A DNA stretch of 64,000 nucleotides from an uncultured bacterium (GCA_964385615.1 CAYLPP010000001.1:256484-320483), one strand, 5' to 3'. Positions 881 to 63,638 are shown, counted from the stretch's first letter. Notes: generated from the letters alone by a model not told the origin. Numbers and translations are program-made.

Positions 881-1045
881 AATCGAAGGATTCAGTGAGC
901 CCGGATGCACCCGCGCCTTTGCGCGAGCACCTCTCGGCAGAACTTTGAAAGTTCTGCCCGAGACGGGCCCTTTGGCGAACCTGTGCGGCCGCCGCAGGCA
1001 GTCTTCCTTAAACTGCCGCGACGCCGTACTTGTTCTTAGGAACAA
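881..1045 (-). ncRNA. candidate small structured RNA or degenerate tRNA-like element in the tRNA-Lys/tRNA-CAU spacer
   Basis: The 220-nt spacer contains an 8-bp hairpin GGCAGAAC-UUUCAAA-GUUCUGCC (936-958) whose 7-nt loop has U33 and a UCA anticodon-like triplet. A second GC hairpin is CGCGC-AAAG-GCGCG. A 14-nt copy of the tRNA-Lys 3' end (AGTGAGCCCGGATG, 894-907) can pair with GGGCCCG to form an acceptor-like stem. No D-arm or canonical T-loop is present. Confidence 0.25.
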
Positions 1046-1046
1046 G

Positions 1047-1119
1047 TGAGCCCGGATGGATTCGAACCATCGACACCGTCCTTAAAAGGGACGTGCTCTG
1101 CCAACTGAGCTACGGGCTC
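1047..1119 (-). tRNA. tRNA-Lys (UUU)
   Basis: Reverse complement GAGCCCG-TA-GCTC-AGTTGGCA-GAGC-A-CGTCC-CTTTTAA-GGACG-GTGTC-GATGG-TTCGAAT-CCATC-CGGGCTC-A is a canonical 73-nt cloverleaf with anticodon UUU. CCA is not encoded. Confidence 0.85.
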
Positions 1120-4330: not shown

Positions 4331-4798
4331 TTAATCGCAAGGGGTTAACGACTTAATCACTTCGTCGATATGCCCAGTGACCTTCACCTTGGGGAAAATT
4401 TTAGCCACTTTCCCCTTCGGGGCAATGACCACAGTGGTTCTTTCAATACCCATGTACTTCTTACCATACATGCTTTTTTCTTTCCAAACACCATATTTTT
4501 TAATGATTTCCTTACTTTCATCGCTGAGAAGCGGAAAAGGAAGTTTATATTTTCCGGAAAATTTCTGATGCGCCGCGACGGAATCCGCGCTGATCCCTAA
4601 AATAACGGCTTTTTGTTTCTGGAATTTTTTAAACGAATCCCGGAAATCGCAGGCTTCCTGCGTGCACCCTGGAGTATCGTCCTTCGGATAGAAATATAAA
4701 ATGACGGTCTGATCTTCAAAATCCGAAAGGCTGATTTCTCTACCCTCAGAAGAGGGAAGTGAAAAAGCGGGGGCTTTGGAACCTTCTTTAATCGCCAT
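4331..4798 (-). CDS. bcp: thiol peroxidase / peroxiredoxin Bcp (thioredoxin-dependent)
   Basis: 155 aa with the PKDDTPGCT peroxidatic-cysteine motif of the AhpC/TSA-Bcp family. Confidence 0.9.
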   Translation of the reverse strand: MAIKEGSKAPAFSLPSSEGREISLSDFEDQTVILYFYPKDDTPGCTQEACDFRDSFKKFQKQKAVILGISADSVAAHQKFSGKYKLPFPLLSDESKEIIKKYGVWKEKSMYGKKYMGIERTTVVIAPKGKVAKIFPKVKVTGHIDEVIKSLTPCD

Positions 4799-4887
4799 TT
4801 GTTCCTTTCCTCAAGATTCAGACATCCTGTTACAGCACCGCTCGAACCGCGAAAGAATACTGGTTTGTGCGGTCCTCGCCTACTTGC

Positions 4888-4924
4888 GGGCTGGATTTTT
4901 CATTACCATTAAAAATCCTAGCCC
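4888..4924. promoter_or_regulatory. 13-bp inverted repeat (GGGCTGGATTTTT-N10-AAAAATCCTAGCCC) upstream of bcp
   Basis: Seen directly in the sequence. It lies about 90 nt upstream of the bcp start codon in the bcp/aspA intergenic region. It is a candidate operator or 5'-UTR hairpin of a peroxide-stress gene. Confidence 0.3.
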
Positions 4925-4968
4925 TTTAGTTGCTTTCACAGGAGTCTTCATCTCTCGTCAATTGAAAA

Positions 4969-6345
4969 TTAATTTTTAGGCTGTGTGAGCCGTACGGGAG
5001 AGAGGATTTTATCAATTTCGCGGGCGGAAAGATATTTTTTATCGAGAATCGTTTGGCGCAGCGTTTTTCCGGTCTTGGCTGAAAGCTTGACGCATTCAGC
5101 CGCTTTCTCATAACCGATAAACGGATTAAGCGCCGCGGCGATGCCGTAACTTTCTTCCGCGTATTTACGGCAGCGTTTGGTATCGGCCGTAATTCCGGAG
5201 ACACAGAATTTCGCGAAAAGCCGGGTGACGTTTTTTAGGATTTCCAGCGACTGCATTAAATTGTAGGCAATCACGGGGCGCATGACATTTAATTCCAACT
5301 GACCGTAAGTAGAAGCCAGTGCGATCGCTTGGTCGTTTCCGGTCACTTGAAAACCGGCCTGCATCGCGGCTTCGGGCATGACCGGATTAACCTTGCCCGG
5401 CATAATGGAAGACCCCGGCTGACGGGCGGGCAAATGAATTTCCCCCAGTCCCGTGTGCGGTCCTGAAGAAAGAAAACGCAGATCATTGGAAATTTGAATC
5501 AGTGAAAGCCCGTAATTTTTAAGACTGCTGGAAACCGCCGCGAAATCCGCGTCAGACTGCATGACCTCAAAAAGATTTTTGGCACTGCGGACTTTCAAAC
5601 CGCTCTGTACCGCCAGGGCTCGAACCACTTTCCGGCGGATGGAAATACTTGTGTTCAACCCGGTGCCGACAGCGGAACCGCCGATCCCCAGCTCACGCAA
5701 AAATTCTCCGGCCTTCTCAGCTTTGATCCTGCCCTTTTCAAGTTGGCGTGCCCAACCGCCGAATTCCTGCCCGAGCGTGATCGGCGCGGCGTCCTGTAAA
5801 TGCGTCCGGCCTGATTTCAGCACATAACGAAATTCGCGGGCTTTATCCTGAAATGCTTTTTCGAGAACTTTTGAAGACTCCAAAAATTCCCCCAGCAATT
5901 TAAGAGCGGCGAGACGCATGGCGGTTGGAATCACATCATTGGTGGACTGACCGCGGTTGACATGATCATGCGGATTCAGGAAAGCGTAGTCCCCTTTTTT
6001 ACGCCCTAAAATTTCCAATGCCCGGTTAGCCACGACTTCATTCATGTTCATGTGAAGTGAAACACCCGCGCCGGACTGAAGCGCGTCAGTCACAAACTGA
6101 TCGTGAAGTTTCCCCTGAAGAATTTCATCACAGGCGCGGATGATCGCCCGGGTTTTACCGGCGGGAATCAGCCCCATCGATTGGTGGACTTGCGCGTAAA
6201 CTTTTTTAACTAAGGCCAGACTACGCACCAATTCCGGATGAAACCTCCAGCCGGAAACCGGAAAATTCTCCACGGCGCGGAGAGTTTCGATACCGTAATA
6301 CACATGCGCTGGGACAGGCCTCTGCCCGAGCGAATCTTTCTCCAT
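4969..6345 (-). CDS. aspA: aspartate ammonia-lyase (class II fumarase/aspartase family)
   Basis: Contains the GSSIMPGKVNPVMPE signature. The NPV-type motif, N-terminus and length (about 460 aa) point to aspartase rather than fumarase. The start is taken at MEKDSLG; an in-frame ATG 7 codons upstream (6366) is also possible. Confidence 0.8.
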   Translation of the reverse strand: MEKDSLGQRPVPAHVYYGIETLRAVENFPVSGWRFHPELVRSLALVKKVYAQVHQSMGLIPAGKTRAIIRACDEILQGKLHDQFVTDALQSGAGVSLHMNMNEVVANRALEILGRKKGDYAFLNPHDHVNRGQSTNDVIPTAMRLAALKLLGEFLESSKVLEKAFQDKAREFRYVLKSGRTHLQDAAPITLGQEFGGWARQLEKGRIKAEKAGEFLRELGIGGSAVGTGLNTSISIRRKVVRALAVQSGLKVRSAKNLFEVMQSDADFAAVSSSLKNYGLSLIQISNDLRFLSSGPHTGLGEIHLPARQPGSSIMPGKVNPVMPEAAMQAGFQVTGNDQAIALASTYGQLELNVMRPVIAYNLMQSLEILKNVTRLFAKFCVSGITADTKRCRKYAEESYGIAAALNPFIGYEKAAECVKLSAKTGKTLRQTILDKKYLSAREIDKILSPVRLTQPKN

Positions 6346-6374
6346 GCGTGTGCGGTTTTTTTTCATGGCTAGCC

Positions 6375-6803: not shown

Positions 6804-6840
6804 GTCAGAATTATAGCATAAAGGAAGGCGCGGGCCGGGA

Positions 6841-6900
6841 GGGTAAAAAAGAAAACCGGCGTAGGAAAAAGCCTCTAAAAAAAGCCCTTTTCTACGCCGG
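6841..6900 (-). terminator. intrinsic terminator downstream of the HU gene
   Basis: 9-bp stem CCGGCGTAG/CTACGCCGG (6856-6900) with a large A/T-rich loop. On the minus strand it is followed by TTTTCTTTTTT, corresponding to plus-strand 6841-6855. Confidence 0.5.
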
Positions 6901-6908
6901 AGTTCAGA

Positions 6909-43327: not shown

Positions 43328-43417
43328 AAAAAAAGGCGCTACCTGACCGTCCGGCTAAACCTTTAAAAAGATCAGCCTGGCACATCAGGTAACGCCTCCG
43401 TGAATATTTGCGGGTTT

Positions 43418-43546
43418 TTAATAACCGTTACTGCTGTAACCCGAACCGCTGACAGGGCTATAGCCGTAATCGTCAAAAAAACCCTGGCAGGACGAAAGTG
43501 TTAAACAAGAAAAAAGCAGAAATAGAACCGCTAAAAGTTTTTTCAT
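43418..43546 (-). CDS. possible 42-aa lipoprotein (unannotated small ORF)
   Basis: Manual translation: MKKLLAVLFLLFSCLTLSSCQGFFDDYGYSPVSGSGYSSNGY, a signal peptide plus lipobox followed by a Gly/Tyr/Ser tail. It is below the ORF-track length cutoff and lies in the rpsI-asmA intergenic region. Confidence 0.3.
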   Translation of the reverse strand: MKKLLAVLFLLFSCLTLSSCQGFFDDYGYSPVSGSGYSSNGY

Positions 43547-43577
43547 GGCCTGCTTGAAATGAAAAACTAAGGGAAAA

Positions 43578-43973
43578 TTAACGCTTGGTGTACTGGAAGC
43601 GTTTGCGGGCGCCTTTGCGTCCGAACTTCTTACGTTCCTTCTTACGGGGATCGCGCGTCATTAAACCCGAGGCACGCATGGAAGTGCGGAGCTTTTCATC
43701 ATAAGCCACAAGCGCGCGCGCAACGCCAAGACGGATCGCTCCGGCCTGACCAGCCATTCCGCCGCCGTGCACTTCAGCGCGGACGCGGAAGTTATCGGAA
43801 GCATTCGCCGCTTTCAGGGGCTGCTCAACAATCATCTCAAGGTTAGGACGCTGAAGGTAGGCGTGAGTGTCCTGACCGTTAACCGTAAAACCCTTTTGTC
43901 CGGGAAAAATCCAGACGCGGGCGATAGCATTTTTTCTTCTTCCAGTTGCGTAAAAGGAGGTATCTTGAGCCAT
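43578..43973 (-). CDS. rpsI: 30S ribosomal protein S9
   Basis: 131 aa; YATGRRKNAIARV and a C-terminal basic tail ending in R. Confidence 0.95.
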   Translation of the reverse strand: MAQDTSFYATGRRKNAIARVWIFPGQKGFTVNGQDTHAYLQRPNLEMIVEQPLKAANASDNFRVRAEVHGGGMAGQAGAIRLGVARALVAYDEKLRTSMRASGLMTRDPRKKERKKFGRKGARKRFQYTKR

Positions 43974-43975
43974 TT

Positions 43976-44404
43976 TTAAACTTCCAGTGCGACAGGTTTT
44001 TGGGCTTGATGATTATGCTCAGCGCCGGCGTAAACACGAAGGCGGCGCAGCATTTCACGGCCGAGTTTATTTTTGGGAAGCATGCGGGAAACCGCGCGCT
44101 CGATAATTTCTTCAGGCTTTTTGGCCATCAACTCTTCAAAAGAATAGGTCTTGAGGCCGCCCGGATAACCGCTGTAGTGCTTGTAGATTTTCTGTTCTTT
44201 CTTTTTGCCGGTCACGTGAACTTCAGTGGCATTGATCACAATGACCTGATCGCCGGAAAGCTGATCCGGAGCAAAAACGGCTTTTCTCTTGCCGATCAAA
44301 ACGGTGGCAACTTTGCTTGCAAGGCGGCCGAGCGTTTTGCCGGACGCATTGACGAGATAAGTTTTTCTATCAAAATCTTTTTCAGTGGGTAAAAACGTTT
44401 TCAT
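43976..44404 (-). CDS. rplM: 50S ribosomal protein L13
   Basis: 142 aa, uL13-like sequence. It is immediately upstream of rpsI in the conserved rplM-rpsI order. Confidence 0.95.
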   Translation of the reverse strand: MKTFLPTEKDFDRKTYLVNASGKTLGRLASKVATVLIGKRKAVFAPDQLSGDQVIVINATEVHVTGKKKEQKIYKHYSGYPGGLKTYSFEELMAKKPEEIIERAVSRMLPKNKLGREMLRRLRVYAGAEHNHQAQKPVALEV

Positions 44405-44488
44405 TAGATTTAGCTCCTGGGAAAAATGAGCACGAAGTATAACAATTTACCCCATGCGTGTCAAACCATTTATTTAAGTCGTTTATAA

Positions 44489-45268
44489 TCAATAAGTTAC
44501 GTCAACCAGATACAGGCCTTGAGCCGGGGCTCCCTGCCCCACGGAACGGCGGTCCCTGGCCTTCAAAATTCCGGGCAATTCATTAAAGTCCAGCCGTCCC
44601 CGGCCTATTTCCACCAAAGCTCCGGTCAAATTCCTGACCATCCGGTAGAGAAATCCGTCCGCCGTCACGCGAATCCGGACCACATCCCCTTCCCTTTTAA
44701 CCTCAAACTTTTTAATCGTCCGCACCGCGTTGTTCCCGCGCCGGTCCGGGTCTGTGGTACAAAAAGACCGGAAATCATGCTTCCCGGTCAAAATTTTCGC
44801 AGCCTTGCGCATTTTGGAAAGATTCAGGCGGTCGCGTACGTGCCAGGCCCGCTGAGCGTAAAAAGGCGACCGTGCCTCGTGATTCCAAATCAGATATTCA
44901 TACGTTTTTTCTTTGGTATGAAACCGCGAATGGAATTCATCCGGTACATCCAGCGCTTCCCGCACCGCGACGGAGGGCGGTAAAATCGCGTTCAAGGCTT
45001 TGCGGATTTCCCACGGCGTCAGCAGACTTTGTGTTTTGAAATGCACCACTTGAGAAGAAGCGTGAACTCCCGCGTCCGTGCGCCCGCTCGCGGCACCGAT
45101 CTTCACCGCGGATCCGGTCAATTTTTGAAGAGCCTCTTCGAGAGCGGCCTGCACCGTCGGGCGCGAAGGCTGTCTTTGGAATCCATGAAAGCCGGTGCCG
45201 TCGTACTGAAGCACCAGTTTTATATTTCTATTTTTTAGAGGCCCAGATTTCGGCGATTTGGACGGCAT
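44489..45268 (-). CDS. truA: tRNA pseudouridine(38-40) synthase
   Basis: 259 aa; LVLQYDGTGFHGFQRQ N-terminal motif and catalytic Asp region of TruA. Confidence 0.9.
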   Translation of the reverse strand: MPSKSPKSGPLKNRNIKLVLQYDGTGFHGFQRQPSRPTVQAALEEALQKLTGSAVKIGAASGRTDAGVHASSQVVHFKTQSLLTPWEIRKALNAILPPSVAVREALDVPDEFHSRFHTKEKTYEYLIWNHEARSPFYAQRAWHVRDRLNLSKMRKAAKILTGKHDFRSFCTTDPDRRGNNAVRTIKKFEVKREGDVVRIRVTADGFLYRMVRNLTGALVEIGRGRLDFNELPGILKARDRRSVGQGAPAQGLYLVDVTY

Positions 45269-46241
45269 TGAGAGCGGCCCCCTTCCAGAGCTGATCTCCC
45301 GCGACCATCAGGGCGAGGCCGTTTTCAGAAGACAGATCTTTGCGGATTCTGCCGACCAGCACATTTTCCCGGCCGCTGGCTTCAATGGGCATGGGGAAAT
45401 GATTCGCTTTCGAATCATCCTGAATATCGACTCCCGGGGCCTGCCTGAGGATTTCTTTCGCCTGCTCAGGCGTCATGGGCTTTTCGAATTCAAGATAAAG
45501 AACTTCTGTGTGAGCGCGCAAAACGGGGACCCGGATGCACGTCGTGACAATTCTCACCGAATCATCATGCAGAATTTTATGCGCTTCCTGAATCATCTTG
45601 AGTTCTTCCCCGTTGTAACCGCCGTCTTCAACCGCGGCGTTATGAGAAAACAAATTAAACGCGATCTGATGCGGAAAAACCTTCTTGGTCGCGGGCTTCC
45701 CTTCCAGAACTTCCCGAGTCTGGTTTTTTAATTCTTCCATCGCGACCGCTCCCGCGCCGCTAACCGCCTGATACGTGGAAACCAAAATCCGGCGAACCCG
45801 GTTCTTGCGGTGAAGCGGAGCTACCGCCATCAGCATAATAATCGCGGAACAATTCGGGTTAGCGATAATGCCTTTGTTTTTAAAAATATCATCCCCGTTA
45901 ATTTCAGGCACCACGAGCGGAACATCCGGGTTCATACGGAAAGCACTCGTGTTATCAATAATCAAAGCGCCGTCCTTGATCGCGTGCGGTACGAACTGTT
46001 TACTGACCGAAGCGCCCGGGCTGGATAAGACGACGTCGATTCCTTTAAATTCTCCGGGCTGGGACTTCAATTCCAGAATCGGGTACTCCGCGCCGTTGAA
46101 ACGGACCTTCTGGCCGGCGGACCGGGCGGAGCCGAACGGGCGGAATTCCCCCACCGGAAATTTGCGCTTTTCAAGTAATGTGATAATTTCGTGACCGACC
46201 GCGCCTTTGGCGCCGACAACCGCAATATTAAATGTCTTCAT
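45228..46241 (-). CDS. asd: aspartate-semialdehyde dehydrogenase
   Basis: 337 aa; N-terminal VGAKGAVG NAD(P)-binding motif and active-site Cys (NPNCS). Confidence 0.95.
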   Translation of the reverse strand: MKTFNIAVVGAKGAVGHEIITLLEKRKFPVGEFRPFGSARSAGQKVRFNGAEYPILELKSQPGEFKGIDVVLSSPGASVSKQFVPHAIKDGALIIDNTSAFRMNPDVPLVVPEINGDDIFKNKGIIANPNCSAIIMLMAVAPLHRKNRVRRILVSTYQAVSGAGAVAMEELKNQTREVLEGKPATKKVFPHQIAFNLFSHNAAVEDGGYNGEELKMIQEAHKILHDDSVRIVTTCIRVPVLRAHTEVLYLEFEKPMTPEQAKEILRQAPGVDIQDDSKANHFPMPIEASGRENVLVGRIRKDLSSENGLALMVAGDQLWKGAALNAVQIAEIWASKK

Positions 46242-46284
46242 CTCTTTAAAATTTCCTTTTCACCCCTCAGTAATCAGGCTGGTC

Positions 46285-46396
46285 CTGCGGCACCGTCGGT
46301 CCGGCATTTCTCATGCCGTCCGTCTACACCCTCGGCGTTTGGTACCGCCCCAAACGCCTGCGGGAGTTGCCTCCGAACCACCTGCTTGCTTCGGTC
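46285..46396. repeat. copy 1 of a ~112-nt conserved structured element (leuB-asd intergenic)
   Basis: About 85% identical to 63324-63434. The shared core GGCACCGTCGGTCCG…CGTCCGTCTACAC…GGCGTTTGG-TNCCGCC-CCAAAC…GAGTTGCC…TGCTTGCTTC has compensatory substitutions in two hairpins. Confidence 0.6.
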
Positions 46397-46398
46397 TT

Positions 46399-47469
46399 TT
46401 ATTTAATGCGGTCAATAACAAGCTGTCCCATTTGAACACAGCCGACTTTGGTATTGCCTTCCGAATAAATATCTGCGGTGCGGTAACCTTCAGCCAGCAC
46501 CTGCTCCACAGCCTTTTCGATCGACTGCGCGAGTTCGTACAAGTTGAAGGAATGTTCCATCATCATCGCGACGGAAATAATCGCCGCCAGCGGATTGGCC
46601 AGATCTTTACCCGCGATATCCGGCGCGGAACCATGCACCGGTTCATAGAGAGCGTGATTCATGCCGATTGAAGCCGACGGCAGCATCCCGATAGAACCCG
46701 CGACCATAGCGCCTTCGTCACTCAAAATATCGCCGAACAGGTTCGTGGTAACCATAACATCAAATTGACCGGGATTTTTAATCAACTGCATCGCGCAATC
46801 ATCCACATAACGGTGATCAAGCTGAATATCCGGAAACCGTTTATGAACTTCGGTCACGACTTTGCGCCACAGCTGACTGGACTCCAGCACATTAGCTTTG
46901 TCCACGGAAGTCACCTTCCGCCGGCGCTTGCGCGCGAATTCAAAAGCTTTGACCGCGATACGTTCAATCTGCGGTGTGGTGTAGTATTCCGTGTTGATAC
47001 CTTCTTCAGAACCATCCGCGAGCTTCTTAACACCTCTTGGCTGACCGAAATAAATCCCGCTGACCAGCTCGCGAAAAATAATCATATCCACGCCTTTGAC
47101 CACTTCCGGTTTCAGCGGAGAATTCGCGACAAGCTGAGGGAACATTTTCACAGGCCGCAGGTTCGCGAACACATCCAAACCTTTACGCAAAGCGAGCAGC
47201 GCCTTTTCGGGCCGTTTCGCGGTTTCAACATGGTCCCACTTGGGGCCGCCGACCGCGCCCAGAAAAACAGCGTCGGCATTTTTGGCTTTTTCCAGATTCT
47301 CAGGCGTAATCGGCTCACCGAACTTATCAATAGAAGCCCCGCCGATAATCCCTTCCTCGATCTCAAAAACCAGATGGAACTTTTTGCCCAGATGCTGAAT
47401 CAGCTTTACCGCCTGCTGAGTGACTTCCACACCGATCCCGTCACCGGGGAATGCCGTAATCTTGTACAT
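46399..47469 (-). CDS. leuB: 3-isopropylmalate dehydrogenase
   Basis: 356 aa; typical isocitrate/isopropylmalate dehydrogenase motifs (NLFGDILSD). Confidence 0.95.
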   Translation of the reverse strand: MYKITAFPGDGIGVEVTQQAVKLIQHLGKKFHLVFEIEEGIIGGASIDKFGEPITPENLEKAKNADAVFLGAVGGPKWDHVETAKRPEKALLALRKGLDVFANLRPVKMFPQLVANSPLKPEVVKGVDMIIFRELVSGIYFGQPRGVKKLADGSEEGINTEYYTTPQIERIAVKAFEFARKRRRKVTSVDKANVLESSQLWRKVVTEVHKRFPDIQLDHRYVDDCAMQLIKNPGQFDVMVTTNLFGDILSDEGAMVAGSIGMLPSASIGMNHALYEPVHGSAPDIAGKDLANPLAAIISVAMMMEHSFNLYELAQSIEKAVEQVLAEGYRTADIYSEGNTKVGCVQMGQLVIDRIK

Positions 47470-47480
47470 AATCTTCTTCC

Positions 47481-48041
47481 TTATTTCATCATTCCCGAAG
47501 CTTTGGCGTATTTAAAAACGTCGCCGGCTTCGATGATCGGGAGAACATCGCCGATCGGTTTCAAATTGTAGGTTTTTCCGGTCGTTAAATTTTTCAGGCT
47601 GTGATTTTTAACATCCAGCTCGACTTCCTCGCCCGTTTTCAAAATCGTCGAAAGGCGCTCATCGGTTTCAAACGGAATCAAATAACCGCCGTTGACCGAA
47701 TTACGGAAGAAGATGCGCGAATAAAATTCCGCGACTACGGCCGTACAGCCCGCTTCACGCATACAAAACGAGGCATGCTCACGGGAGGAACCGCAGCCGA
47801 AGTTCTTACCGCCGATCACGATTTTATAGTCAGACACAAAACTGTCTGATGAGACAAACGGAATTTTCCCGTAAGGAAGGCCCTGACCGTTTTCCGGAAC
47901 GCCCGAAAGCGCGTAACGCGCGTACATCTTGCGCTCTTCAGGAAGACTCAGGCTGTAGCTGAGATACTGAGCCGGAATAATCTGGTCCGTATCCACATCG
48001 TCACCCACCACATAGCATTTTCCGCGAATGATATTTTCCAT
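47481..48041 (-). CDS. leuD: 3-isopropylmalate dehydratase small subunit
   Basis: 186 aa aconitase swivel domain; adjacent to leuC. Confidence 0.9.
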   Translation of the reverse strand: MENIIRGKCYVVGDDVDTDQIIPAQYLSYSLSLPEERKMYARYALSGVPENGQGLPYGKIPFVSSDSFVSDYKIVIGGKNFGCGSSREHASFCMREAGCTAVVAEFYSRIFFRNSVNGGYLIPFETDERLSTILKTGEEVELDVKNHSLKNLTTGKTYNLKPIGDVLPIIEAGDVFKYAKASGMMK

Positions 48042-48043
48042 GA

Positions 48044-49342
48044 TTACACCAAAAACTTTCTAGGGTCTGTGATTTTCCCCTCAACGGCCGAAGCCGCGAC
48101 CGTGTACGGCGAGGCCAGATAGACTGAAGACTGTTTTGAACCCATACGGCCCGGGAAATTCCGGTTCGTGGTGGAGATACAGACTTCCGCCTTGTTCAGA
48201 CGGCCGAAAGTGTCCGTGGGACCGCCCAGACACGCGGCACAAGAAGCGTCGCCCATCTTGGCGCCGGCTTCGATAAAAATCTGGCGAAGGCTTTTCCCGC
48301 CGATTTTTTCCGTGTCCAGCACGCGGCTGACTTCCGTCGTCGCGGGAACAATATAAAGATCCGTTTTCGCTTTACGGCCGTTCAAAATTTTAGCCGCGGC
48401 AATAAAGTCCGTGATCTTTCCGCCCGTGCAGGAACCCACGTACGCACGGTCAATGGCCGTGCCTTCAACTTCACGCACCAGGGCTTTGTTATCCGGTGAA
48501 TGCGGTTTTGCCACAACCGGTTCAAGGTCTTTAGTCTTGTAAACTTTCTCGACGAAATATTTCGCGTCGGAATCATTCTGCACCGCATTGAAGGGCATTT
48601 TGGTTTTAGATTTCACAAAATCAATCGTGACCTGGTCGGGCGCGATAATGCCGTTTTTGCCGCCGGCTTCAATGACCATATTGCAAAGCGTCATGCGCTC
48701 TTCAATATTTAAAGAAAACACACCATCGCCCGCGAATTCCATGGCGCGGTAAATGGCGCCGTCCACACCGATATCACCGATGATATGCAGAATCAAATCC
48801 TTGGCCATCAGGTAAGGCGGAAGAGGGCCGTCAAAAACGAACCGCATGGTGGGCGGAACCTTGACCCAGAGTTTTCCAGTCCCCAAGATAAAACCCGCGT
48901 CGGTATTACCAATGCCGGTGGCGAATTCGCCAAAAGCGCCGGCCGTGCAGGTGTGAGAATCCGTACCGAACAGCACTTCGCCCGGGCGCGTGTGGCCTTC
49001 TTCCGGAAGCGCGATATGACAAACCCCTTTATAGCGTTCGGAATTCACGTCATAAAAATGCGGGATATTCTGCTCTTTCACGAAATCACGAAGAATGTCC
49101 ACGTTGCGGTGGCATTTTTCGTCGGCCGTGAAAATATAATGATCCGGGATAATCACGACCTTGTTCCGGTCCCAGACTTTCGCCTGCTTGCCGAAGTGAT
49201 CCTTGAAAACGCCGATCGTGCCGGGACCGCACACGTCATGCGTCATGAGTACGTCAACATCAATCCAGATATTGTCGCCGGGTTTCACCGCGTTTTTTCC
49301 GGCGTGTTTGGCTAAAATTTTATCAGTAATCGTCATTCCCAT
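48044..49342 (-). CDS. leuC: 3-isopropylmalate dehydratase large subunit (short/archaeal-type)
   Basis: 432 aa aconitase catalytic domain with Fe-S cysteine ligands (…GSCTGG…). Confidence 0.9.
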   Translation of the reverse strand: MGMTITDKILAKHAGKNAVKPGDNIWIDVDVLMTHDVCGPGTIGVFKDHFGKQAKVWDRNKVVIIPDHYIFTADEKCHRNVDILRDFVKEQNIPHFYDVNSERYKGVCHIALPEEGHTRPGEVLFGTDSHTCTAGAFGEFATGIGNTDAGFILGTGKLWVKVPPTMRFVFDGPLPPYLMAKDLILHIIGDIGVDGAIYRAMEFAGDGVFSLNIEERMTLCNMVIEAGGKNGIIAPDQVTIDFVKSKTKMPFNAVQNDSDAKYFVEKVYKTKDLEPVVAKPHSPDNKALVREVEGTAIDRAYVGSCTGGKITDFIAAAKILNGRKAKTDLYIVPATTEVSRVLDTEKIGGKSLRQIFIEAGAKMGDASCAACLGGPTDTFGRLNKAEVCISTTNRNFPGRMGSKQSSVYLASPYTVAASAVEGKITDPRKFLV

Positions 49343-49368
49343 AAATTTCTCTTTTCCTTAGAATTTTT

Positions 49369-50157
49369 TCAGGACTTGATTAACTTCAGACCTTCCTGAG
49401 GGCTTGAAGCGGAAGCGTATTCTTTCACGGGCATCCGGCCCGCTAGGAATGCCTTACGGCCTGCTAGAACAGCGTCTCTCATGGCTTCAGCCATAAGGAC
49501 CGGATCTTTGGCTTCGGCAATCGCGGTATTCATCAGAATCCCGTCCGCGCCGAGCTCCATACAAACCGCGGCATCGGAAGCCGTGCCCACGCCCGCGTCG
49601 ACAATCACGGGGCATGAAACCGCTTCCATGACAAACTTTAAATTCAGCGGGTTTTGAATTCCCCGGCCTGAACCAATCGGCGAAGCCAACGGCATGACAC
49701 AGGCAGCGCCCGCGTCTTCCAGCTTTTTAGCCATGACCGGATCATCCGTCGTATAAGGCATGACGGTGAACCCTTCTTTTACCAGAACCTGCGTGGCTTC
49801 CAGCAGACCCACCACATCCGGCATGAGGGTTTTTTTATCCCCGATCACTTCAACTTTAACCAAGTCGCCGCAGCCGGCTTCGCGCGCGAGACGGGCAATG
49901 CGAATCGCGTCCTGCGCCGTGTAAGCCCCGGCCGTGTTGGGCAAAAGCGTGTACTTTTTGCGGTCGATAAAATCCAGAATGTTTTTCTGGGAACGGTCGG
50001 CAAGATTCACCCGTCCGATCGCGACCGTAATCATCTGTGAGCCGGAAATCTCAAGCGCTTCGGCCATCAGCTCAAGCGTCTTGTATTTGCCCGTGCCTAA
50101 AATCAGGCGTGAACTCAATTCATATTTTCCGATTTTTAAAGTTCCCAGGTCCGCCAT
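49369..50157 (-). CDS. thiG: thiazole synthase
   Basis: 262 aa; [20 protein letters not shown]-terminus and Schiff-base Lys region typical of ThiG. No thiS/thiE or TPP riboswitch is adjacent. Confidence 0.9.
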
Positions 50158-51618
50158 TTAAACCGACAAAGTCCTTTTTTTAGTCATTTCGTAAATTTTT
50201 TCATACTGCTTCGCGGAAGCACCCCACGAAAAATCACACGCCATCGCGTTTTCAATCAGCGTCATCCAGGCTTTGGAGTCCTTATAAACTCCCGCGGCCC
50301 TTTGAATCGTGTCCTTCAAAACTTCAGCCTTGTAATCTTTAAAGACAAACCCGTTTCCCTTACCGGTTTTCGGATCAAACTCAGTCACCGTATCCGCGAG
50401 ACCGCCCGTGTAGCGGACGACGGGTATCGTGCCGAACCTCAGGCCGATCATCTGCGCCAAACCGCAAGGCTCATAATAGGACGGAAGCAAAAGCATATCG
50501 CAGCCGGCGTAAATCTGTTTCGCCAGCTTGGCGTCAAAGGTCACCCGCACGCTGATCCGGCCCTTATTACGCTTGGCAAGATCGCGCAAAGCATGGTGGT
50601 ATTTCTCTTCCCCCGTGCCCAGCACGATAAACTGGTACCCGGAAGCGCCCAAAGCTTCCATGGCGGGAATCAGAATATCAATCCCCTTCTGCTCCACTAA
50701 GCGCGAAACCACTCCAAAAACCGGGGCCTTGGTGTCAACATTCAGCCCGTTCTCTTTCTGGAGACCGGTTTTGTTCGCGGCTTTCTTTTCGATTTTTTTA
50801 AAATCGTATTTTTCGTAAATATCCGAATCCGTCGCGGGATTCCAATCTTTCAGATCAATCCCGTTGAGAACCCCGTAAAGATTCTCACGCCGGCGCACCA
50901 AAACACCTTCCAGACCGGCGCCGAATTCCTTGCTTTGAATTTCCTGCGCGTAGCGTTCACTAACCGTCGTCACGCTGTCCGCGTCTAAAATTCCGCCCTT
51001 TAAAAAACTGAACTTGCCGTAAAACTCCAGGCGTTCCATGCGGAAATGCTCCCAACCCAGCCCCGTCATAGGCATGGAATCCGGGGGGAAATTCCCCTGG
51101 TAAGCCAAGTTGTGAATCGTAAAAATCGATTTGGTTTTAGCGAAAAACGGGTCATTCGCGTAAACCGTTTTCAGATAAACCGGAATCAAGCCGGTCTGCC
51201 AGTCGTGACAGTGAATCACATCCGGTTTAAACGGGATACGCTTCAGGCTCTCCAGAACCGCGCGCTGGAAAAACGTGAAGCGCCGGTCATTGTCCGGATA
51301 ATCGCCTGAAGCATTTCCGTAAAAGGAATCCCGCACGAAAAATTCAGGCTGATCAATAAAATAGACCGTGACGCCGTTTTTTGCCGTCAGGCCTAAAACC
51401 GTGCTTTTGATTTTTTCCGCGCCCAGCTGAATTTCAAGATTTTCAACGACCGTCTGGAGGCCTTTTTTGCCCGGATCAATATTTTTGTAGCGGGGCAGAA
51501 AAGCGATCACTTCATGGCCAAGCGCCTTGATCTCACCGGTCAAAGAACCGAGGACATCCGCCAAACCGCCTGTTTTTGCGAAAGGCTCCATTTCGGAAGC
51601 CGCGAACACAATTTTCAT
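50158..51618 (-). CDS. glgA: glycogen synthase (ADP-glucose type, GT5)
   Basis: 486 aa; N-terminal KIVFAASEMEPFAKTGGLADV motif diagnostic of GlgA. Confidence 0.9.
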   Translation of the reverse strand: MKIVFAASEMEPFAKTGGLADVLGSLTGEIKALGHEVIAFLPRYKNIDPGKKGLQTVVENLEIQLGAEKIKSTVLGLTAKNGVTVYFIDQPEFFVRDSFYGNASGDYPDNDRRFTFFQRAVLESLKRIPFKPDVIHCHDWQTGLIPVYLKTVYANDPFFAKTKSIFTIHNLAYQGNFPPDSMPMTGLGWEHFRMERLEFYGKFSFLKGGILDADSVTTVSERYAQEIQSKEFGAGLEGVLVRRRENLYGVLNGIDLKDWNPATDSDIYEKYDFKKIEKKAANKTGLQKENGLNVDTKAPVFGVVSRLVEQKGIDILIPAMEALGASGYQFIVLGTGEEKYHHALRDLAKRNKGRISVRVTFDAKLAKQIYAGCDMLLLPSYYEPCGLAQMIGLRFGTIPVVRYTGGLADTVTEFDPKTGKGNGFVFKDYKAEVLKDTIQRAAGVYKDSKAWMTLIENAMACDFSWGASAKQYEKIYEMTKKRTLSV

Positions 51619-63216: not shown

Positions 63217-63290
<74 letters not shown>

Positions 63291-63323
63291 TTCCTTCTTT
63301 CATCCTCCATCAAACATAGGTTC

Positions 63324-63434
63324 TTCGGCACCGTCGGTCCGCGCCAGCCGGCGCGTCCGTCTACACTCTCGGCGTTTGGTTCCGCCCCAAACACCTGCGA
63401 GAGTTGCCTTCGAATCCTATGTTTGCTTCAGTCT
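63324..63434. repeat. copy 2 of the ~112-nt conserved structured element (between tRNA-Arg and amt)
   Basis: See 46285-46396. Same orientation on the plus strand; the hairpin GCGCC-AGCC-GGCGC here replaces GGCAT-TTCTC-ATGCC in copy 1. Confidence 0.6.
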
Positions 63435-63638
63435 GAAATCATCCAATTAAATTAAAAAACGGGTCGATTTCGTGAAAAAAAATCAGTACAATGCCGGCCA
63501 GCGGTCAACCCGAATCCGGGGTAATGATGCTCCGGCAGCCGGCTCACGGTTCATGATCGGCCCGCGATCGGCAGGGACCCGCGCCTAACCGCGTTCTTTA
63601 CCAAAAGACGCCAACAATGACGTTGGAGGTTTTCAGCA

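Follow-up and report, generated by a model that had tools for sequence, protein, structure and literature searches.

A candidate family of structured, MITE-like repeats at short gene junctions of an uncultured Omnitrophota-like lineage

The window, which is the whole stretch of 64,000 nucleotides analyzed here, carries leuB and asd as neighbors on the minus strand, with leuD, leuC, and thiG upstream of the pair and truA downstream. The 157-nt spacer between leuB and asd (46242-46398) holds one copy of a non-coding element of about 135-140 nt, and a second copy lies in the same orientation between the gene for tRNA-Arg(CCG), which ends 10 nt before it, and the ammonium-transporter gene amt, which starts about 200 nt beyond it (Table 1). 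When the element is read from the minus strand, the gene downstream of copy 2 is a minus-strand gene for an RNase T-like exonuclease. The flanking proteins have their best named homologues in MAGs of Candidatus Omnitrophica/Omnitrophota, at about 60-72% identity. The genome is compact, with most spacers in the window shorter than 50 nt, and about 50 of 59 ORFs are on the minus strand according to a simple longest-ORF call in which some of the plus-strand calls look spurious.

A first-pass annotation of this DNA had described two segments of about 112 nt with roughly 85% identity, one in the leuB-asd spacer and the other between tRNA-Arg and amt. Both segments lie where it placed them, in those gene contexts and in the same orientation, and their mean column identity is 85% in an alignment of 155 columns that takes in some 20 nt of flank at either end. 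The copies are homologous, as described, but their true length is about 135-140 nt when the outer closing stem is included. Likewise, the element was said to fill the leuB-asd spacer from the leuB stop codon onward; it does begin directly after that codon, but the stretch of about 20 nt just ahead of the asd ATG is not common to the copy in a related genome (L001), with which the final 15-20 nt or so cannot be aligned by eye.

Table 1. Positions of the repeat copies, their structural parts, the same-shape candidate, and the neighboring genes, counted from the first nucleotide of the window
Feature	Coordinates	Strand	Description
Peroxiredoxin gene, AhpC/Bcp	4331-4798		flanks the divergent candidate
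Divergent candidate of the same shape, homology unproven	4805-4965	-	R1 21.2 bits, E ~0.005, with filters off only
Lyase gene, fumarase/aspartase type	4969-6366		flanks the divergent candidate
asd	45228-46241	-	flanks copy 1
Copy 1	46262-46398		fills the leuB-asd spacer; minus reading is the operon sense strand; covariance model R1 157 bits, E 1.5e-35; nhmmer E 2.9e-38
Copy 1, P1 second strand	46269-46285		partner of 46375-46390
Copy 1, junction strand	46289-46296		invariant ACGG, then P2 strand TGCC (minus reading)
Copy 1, short hairpin P4 ("hairpin A")	46297-46322		base CGG/CCG invariant; upper stem GGCAT/ATGCC variable
Copy 1, second invariant junction strand	46323-46325		AGA
Copy 1, long central hairpin P3	46329-46364		P3a CCC/GGG and P3b GGCGTTTGG/CCAAACGCC; 7-nt loop
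Copy 1, P1 first strand	46375-46390		AGCAA.CAGGTGGTTC on the minus reading; pairs with 46269-46285
leuB	46399-47469	-	flanks copy 1
tRNA-Arg(CCG)	63217-63290	+	precedes copy 2
Copy 2	63302-63435		between tRNA-Arg(CCG) and amt; plus reading is sense for both flanking genes; covariance model R1 152.8 bits
Copy 2, short hairpin P4	63335-63359		base CGG/CCG; upper stem GCGCC/GGCGC
Copy 2, long central hairpin	63366-63401		P3a CTC/GAG, P3b GGTGTTTGG/CCAAACGCC; one U.G on the minus reading
amt	from 63639	+	follows copy 2

Beyond the edges of the element, copy 1 and copy 2 are no longer similar and their flanks do not align, so the element is no part of a larger duplication, a possibility that the annotation had itself raised. 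It is the only long repeat within the 64-kb window, and a sequence-profile search of the window (nhmmer) gave E values of about 1e-38 for both copies and no other sequence-level match. The finding of only two copies in the window would suit an explanation by chance similarity or as a by-product of a larger recent segmental duplication; however, E values of that size, flanks that cannot be aligned, independent copies in another genome, and substitutions that are compensatory make this explanation extremely improbable. Two plus-strand reading frames are open in both copies, offset by a 1-nt indel. A coding reading was rejected because this indel shifts the frame between copies and because the substitutions show neither codon periodicity nor third-position bias.

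The annotation had considered that only these two copies might exist; this is not so, and further copies are present in a second genome. A covariance model (R1) was built from the three copies then known. Searched against about 149 kb of the window and its relatives, R1 matched only those three building copies, and with filters off it found no more copies in about 98 kb of the relatives' DNA. A strict pattern for the core, GGCACCGTCGGTCC N{6,30} GTCCGTCTACAC, had no matches in genome, metagenome, and viral collections; the pattern was too strict, because even the sister copy differs from it at two positions. A relaxed core pattern had 57 matches in the genome collection, two of them real and both in GCA_964553835.1: the L001 copy at leuB-asd and a new copy at L093:1660-1800 (116 bits). 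The new locus is not within the window. On one side of it is a ribonucleotide-reductase gene with its terminator and on the other an unrelated plus-strand gene, and the copy is antisense to both. For the site of copy 2, the RNase T-like neighbor led to a 1.5-kb contig that stops short of the tRNA and to a contig that is not syntenic, and the truncated amt fragment matched partial proteins, with no close relative among them. The 35 matches to the relaxed pattern in metagenomes are all within long ORFs of high-GC organisms and score at most 22 bits with R1, and were therefore attributed to chance, while the one viral match failed the covariance model. The JGI metagenome, viral, plasmid, and phage collections yielded no copies. 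Four copies can be counted as secure, located at three loci in two genomes, and the family is very narrowly distributed in the data searched.

No described RNA family matches the element. Only three tRNAs pass the Rfam 15 gathering thresholds in the window, nothing relevant was found at E <= 10 around copies 1 and 2, and no match was found at E <= 1 around the L093 copy. The loop sequence GGGGCGGTACC presumably resembles part of the T-box motif; this likeness was rejected, as the loop varies between copies and has no Rfam match. A search of the literature on repeats and non-coding RNAs in Omnitrophota found nothing specific.

The fold of the element consists of a long closing stem (P1), a short helix (P2, GGCA/TGCC), and a three-way junction with a long hairpin (P3) and a short hairpin (P4). 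P1 has about 15-17 pairs, and its sequence differs between the copies while pairing is kept in both. The same fold is obtained for either strand of either copy and is far better than that of shuffled sequence, with RNA z-scores from -4.4 to -7.3 over both copies and both strands (-4.4 for the minus and -4.6 for the plus reading of copy 1; -7.3 and -6.9 for copy 2). Single-stranded DNA folds alike, with z-scores from -3.9 to -6.6.

In an alignment of the four copies that was fitted to the covariance model, and which favors the structure for that reason, 97.1% of cells are standard pairs and 15 of the 44 pairs are changed in both partners. In 500 shuffles, none of the five measures was equaled, and sliding the 3' partners by one to three columns reduces pairing to 29-44% and double changes to between one and three. 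RNAalifold applied to a plain MAFFT alignment of three copies found nine compensated pairs. The changes on both sides affect 7/17 pairs of P1 and 4/9 pairs of P4, and at the tip of P3b the two window copies have GC pairs where the two copies of the related MAG have UA. The individual substitutions singled out in the annotation are all present: the stem that it called hairpin A, which is the upper part of P4, pairs GGCAT with ATGCC in copy 1 and GCGCC with GGCGC in copy 2; the change from C:G to T:A in the extension of the central hairpin corresponds to alignment pair 41/74; and the single C-to-T change corresponds to pair 48/68, which becomes U.G when the minus strand is read and C.A when the plus strand is read. 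Its conclusion that covariation here means selection on structure also stands, since the compensatory differences are far beyond those in the controls. The pattern of substitution shows a fold that is evidently maintained by purifying selection.

Of the core junction and internal-loop columns, none of 17 varies, compared with 18 of 54 paired columns (three copies found without the use of junction motifs; Fisher p = 0.004, post hoc partition); when all unpaired columns are compared with the stems, the junctions are not more conserved (p about 0.6). An invariant three-way-junction core with varying stems looks more like the core of a functional RNA than a transposase substrate. It has been considered that the element could be a gene family for a structured RNA with an activity of its own, such as protein binding, self-cleavage as a ribozyme, or guiding or priming of its own spread, with the junction core as the active part. 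Covarying stems around 17 invariant core nucleotides (three copies, with the same post hoc p value) are the typical pattern of functional RNAs, the fold is kept by every copy in any genomic context, and conservation is well above the neutral level. Against this, there is no Rfam match even at E <= 10, including all the described ribozyme classes in Rfam; scans with promoter and terminator consensus sequences (sigma-70-type signals only) found none adjoining any copy; copy 1 lies inside an operon; scans of the large collections did not find the family; and the candidate at 4805-4965, described below, is without the core nucleotides. We regard an RNA gene family of this kind as quite unlikely.

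The evidence on the functional strand is not decisive. The annotation had taken the minus strand to be the functional one on the basis of a wobble pair, but the wobbles are too few to carry that call: the four copies have four G.U cells on the minus reading against two A.C cells, and these two would be G.U on the plus reading. Two further apparent G.U cells are artefacts of the alignment, in which the true pairing partner is a neighboring A. RNAs of the minus reading are more stable by 7-12 kcal/mol, and the shuffle z-scores are alike on both strands. The orientation of the element relative to genes is mixed: the minus reading is sense at leuB-asd, but at copy 2 and at L093 it runs antisense to both neighbors and the plus reading is sense. 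Every 4-kb bin has a negative GC skew, which places the whole window on one replichore with the minus strand leading; the window elements (the two secure copies and the candidate at 4805-4965) share one orientation relative to the replication strand, a number that is not significant (n = 3).

The leuB-asd region was compared in seven relatives, retrieved through asd homologues. In L001 (MAG GCA_964553835.1), with asd 90% identical to that of the window, a 148-nt spacer holds the element with many further compensatory changes. The two genes overlap in L002 (asd 88% identical) and abut in L006 (82%) and L102 (90%), while the spacer is 14 nt in L003 (86%) and 43 nt in L005 (86-87%, with 87% in one comparison and 85.8% in another). 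In L103 (asd 89% identical) a 118-nt spacer contains a different small hairpin repeat. The junction is filled by the element in the window and L001, and the element is absent in L002, L003, L005, L006, and L102; its absence from the same junction in close relatives identifies it as an insertion. In the asd tree, which is star-like, the two carrier genomes are not clearly united, and one gain with later losses is not distinguished from two gains at the same junction.

The order thiG-(leuC-leuD)-leuB-asd-truA-rplM-rpsI-AsmA-like is otherwise largely kept between the window (43500-50200) and L001, L002, L003, L005, L006, and L102; L003 and L006 have no leuC-leuD between thiG and leuB, and L006 leaves the common order after truA. 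The hairpin repeat seen in L103 belongs to a second small repeat family in the relatives, about 85-95 nt in length, with copies at L103:251-345 and L093:1565-1650. The ends of this second family are conserved (TTTTTCrGGGCCTGTCAC ... CCACCCGAAAA), and the internal stem differs between the copies yet pairs in both. One copy fills the L103 leuB-asd junction, and the other directly adjoins the L093 copy of the main element. No copy of the second family is in the window, and it has no Rfam match.

The divergence of the two carrier genomes provides a measure of constraint. Four-fold degenerate sites of the window and L001 are 48% identical in asd and 54% in leuB, which is near saturation, and the two copies of the element at this same junction are 72% identical (p ~6e-6 against 54%); the element at leuB-asd would therefore seem to be either constrained or younger than the split of the two genomes. 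Copies within a genome are more alike than copies at the same locus, with 15 genome-specific columns versus 8 locus-specific columns in the four copies, and an interior identity of 91% between L001 and L093 versus 75% between copy 1 and L001. The simplest account of these column counts would be that daughter copies were made in each lineage after the split, with gene conversion as an alternative.

A further structure resembling the element is found at 4805-4965, where it fills the 170 nt that separate a fumarase/aspartase-type lyase gene from an AhpC/Bcp peroxiredoxin gene. Its independent minimum-free-energy fold is a long stem and a three-way junction (z -5.2), and 36 of 44 model pairs are Watson-Crick, with both members of 18 of these changed relative to copy 1. 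Identity to copy 1 at unpaired positions is 18/47 (38%), the core junction nucleotides are not kept, no match was found with the nhmmer profile of the family, and MAFFT gave no sensible alignment with the family. R1 gives the reverse complement of copy 1 an equally high score (24 bits), which indicates that the score of the candidate reflects shape. The three window copies, when this one is included, share a purine-rich, Shine-Dalgarno-like 3' tail on the minus reading. As judged from the model and the predicted fold, 4805-4965 has the same shape as the element and is a candidate homologue, with homology unproven.

Several other structured sites occur in the window. A repeat pair at 868-907 and 1019-1058 (minus strand) consists of the last 12 nt of tRNA-Lys (CATCCGGGCTCA) and a following hairpin, which recur some 150 nt farther along, between the genes for tRNA-Lys and tRNA-Met. 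Both hairpins pair although their stems have different sequences, and the intervening 130 nt or so are GC-rich and palindromic. This repeat could be a tRNA-derived pseudo-element or the remnant of an attachment site. At 6804-6908 (minus), downstream of the HU gene, a long hairpin is followed by a U-run, and at 43328-43577 (minus) a 250-nt spacer with an apparent short ORF ends in a 16-bp hairpin and a U-run. Both of these strongly structured spacers seem ordinary and look like intrinsic terminators.

The main rival to a mobile repeat is a cis-acting intercistronic RNA, domesticated or original, which would serve as a processing site, a stability barrier, or a module that uncouples translation, with the copies outside operons as by-products. 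Copy 1 and the L001 copy are sense and lie exactly between the stop codon and the ribosome-binding region of the next gene, and the similarly shaped candidate at 4805-4965 is likewise located between two co-directional genes. The purine-rich 3' tail in the three window copies, the greater stability of the minus reading by 7-12 kcal/mol, and conservation of the leuB-asd element far above that of neutral sites are also consistent with such a role. However, in the five relatives without the element, leuB and asd overlap, abut, or lie close together; copy 2 and the L093 copy are antisense to their neighbors and keep the fold equally well; the wobble counts do not favor the minus strand; and 4805-4965 shares the shape without demonstrable sequence homology. 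A cis-acting role is considered unlikely as the main explanation; such a role could coexist with mobility.

The first-pass annotation had offered three options, namely a cis-acting RNA such as an attenuator or processing site, a small RNA, or a structured repeat of the REP/BIME type. A structured repeat fits best, given the absence of the element from the same junction in close relatives and its occurrence at unrelated loci in both orientations. Neither an attenuator nor a discrete sRNA gene is supported: the flanking genes are functionally unrelated, the element occurs in both orientations, and the consensus scans for sigma-70-type signals revealed no promoter or terminator alongside it. Similar considerations apply to a metabolite-sensing riboswitch or attenuator that controls the downstream gene, which would be asd for copy 1. 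A three-way junction with a variable closing stem and conserved junctions is what such an RNA might look like, and copy 1 is directly upstream of asd; yet the downstream genes are unrelated (asd; the RNase T-like exonuclease or amt; a different gene at L093), the orientation is inconsistent, there is neither a terminator nor a platform that sequesters the Shine-Dalgarno sequence, the element is an insertion without counterpart in close relatives, and it has no match in Rfam. A riboswitch is very improbable on these grounds.

The best-supported explanation, and one that we consider somewhat probable, is a new family of structured, MITE-like interspersed repeats whose fold is under selection. 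The element has inserted, in either orientation relative to its neighbors, in short gene junctions and intergenic gaps of a narrow uncultured Omnitrophota-like lineage. The repeat would be copied to new sites by an enzyme encoded elsewhere, and where it landed within an operon it would be a passive passenger in the transcript, as copy 1 would be in the leuB-asd mRNA. The fold might matter for copying, as folded single-stranded DNA or RNA, or it might matter for being harmless or useful inside mRNAs. In the second case, possible roles would be those of a stable intercistronic structure without a terminator tail or of a determinant of stability or RNase III processing.

The evidence for a mobile repeat consists of insertion polymorphism, dispersal to unrelated loci, mixed orientation, constraint on the fold, resemblance of copies within a genome, and the lack of coding capacity. 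The evidence against it is that terminal inverted repeats are not conserved, target duplication is not consistent, a transposase domain is absent from the ten otherwise unexplained window ORFs that were examined, only four copies are secure, and the collections scanned gave no more. The invariant junction core and an asd tree that leaves the two carriers not clearly united also count against it. In place of terminal inverted repeats conserved in sequence, the ends of the element pair, with 7/17 pairs differing on both sides, and the copies have in common only short end motifs, namely GAC... and, at the opposite end, ...TGA(T/G)GG. No target-site duplication is consistent among the copies; direct repeats occur at single copies (AAAAG at copy 1 and GGATGA at copy 2), but these have no common length or position and are within chance, and filled and unfilled sites are too diverged for the exact ends to be fixed. 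A more unusual reading is that the element is no passive MITE but a small structured nucleic acid that is self-propagating, catalytic, or ligand-active, such as a new ribozyme-like RNA or the folded single-strand substrate of a new mobility system, and that the junction core is recognized in place of terminal repeats. Recognition of the core would explain why the fold and the 17 core nucleotides are kept in every context and orientation while the stems turn over; this reading is rated as low as the RNA gene family with its own activity.

Among known systems, bcr1 from the Bacillus cereus group is the closest analogue of the MITE-like repeat described here. It is about 155 bp in length, has a non-conserved genomic distribution, and is transcribed (PMC3184786), with a cruciform-like stem of two independent hairpins that is kept by compensatory changes (PMC3184786). 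Elements bcr1-3 are often located in UTRs and operon spacers (PMC3446304). The two have in common a similar size, the absence of coding capacity, non-conserved distribution, UTR or operon-spacer sites, and a compensated stem with two hairpins. The comparison is by description and the likeness is in the way of working, not in membership: the phylum is different, no sequence relationship is shown, and bcr1 is specific to the B. cereus group according to the title of a reference in PMC3184786. In addition, bcr1 has 5-bp flanking direct repeats and many copies, whereas the element has no consistent direct repeat and four secure copies, and the junction core of the element is invariant. What was found in the present family that corresponds to bcr1 is the two-hairpin stem with compensatory changes, a non-conserved distribution, and a site inside an operon, where transcription is predicted.

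The MITEs ERIC, Correia (NEMIS), and RUP resemble the element in their non-coding size of 100-160 bp, their intergenic or intercistronic sites, their presence in either orientation, and their long stems. They are co-transcribed with neighboring genes and differ in presence or absence between related genomes (PMC3184786). The element is similar to MITEs generally in being small, non-coding, and dispersed in several copies, with presence/absence polymorphism at the same site. However, classical MITEs have terminal inverted repeats that are conserved in sequence, as the transposase binds them, together with target-site duplications such as TA, and the terminal stem of the element is conserved as pairing only. 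The fold of ERIC, Correia, and RUP is one long imperfect hairpin, whereas that of the element is a three-way junction with an invariant core.

The REP/BIME palindromes with RAYT, and those derived from IS200/IS605, are extragenic repeats recognized as folded single strands, in which structure can be the conserved part. The element is like them in folding also as single-stranded DNA, and in the window it has one orientation relative to the replication strand (n = 3, not significant). The assignment to the REP/BIME type proposed in the annotation does not hold, as the element is a 135-nt three-way junction and not a 20-40-nt palindrome. REPs are simple palindromes of 20-40 nt with a conserved GTAG head, usually in hundreds of copies, whereas the 64-kb window and the sister MAG each have two secure copies of the element. 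The available 64-kb part of the genome showed no RAYT or Y1 transposase. Riboswitch-like RNAs with three-way junctions share with the element a variable closing helix, covarying stems, and invariant junction nucleotides, but the element has no Rfam match, no consistent gene association or orientation, and no expression platform, and it is an insertion that relatives lack.

A MITE-like repeat with a selected fold would add a structured repeat family to a phylum known almost only from metagenomes. It also provides a clean small case of compensatory evolution, in which neutral sites are about 50% identical and 97% of pairs are kept. The leuB-asd junction, which is overlapping, abutting, or 14-43 nt in length in five relatives, has been colonized by at least two different small repeats, and such colonization matters for the annotation of operons and for avoiding false calls of riboswitches in genomes of this kind. 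If the junction core were truly an active RNA or the substrate of a new form of transposition, then the interest of the family would be much higher.
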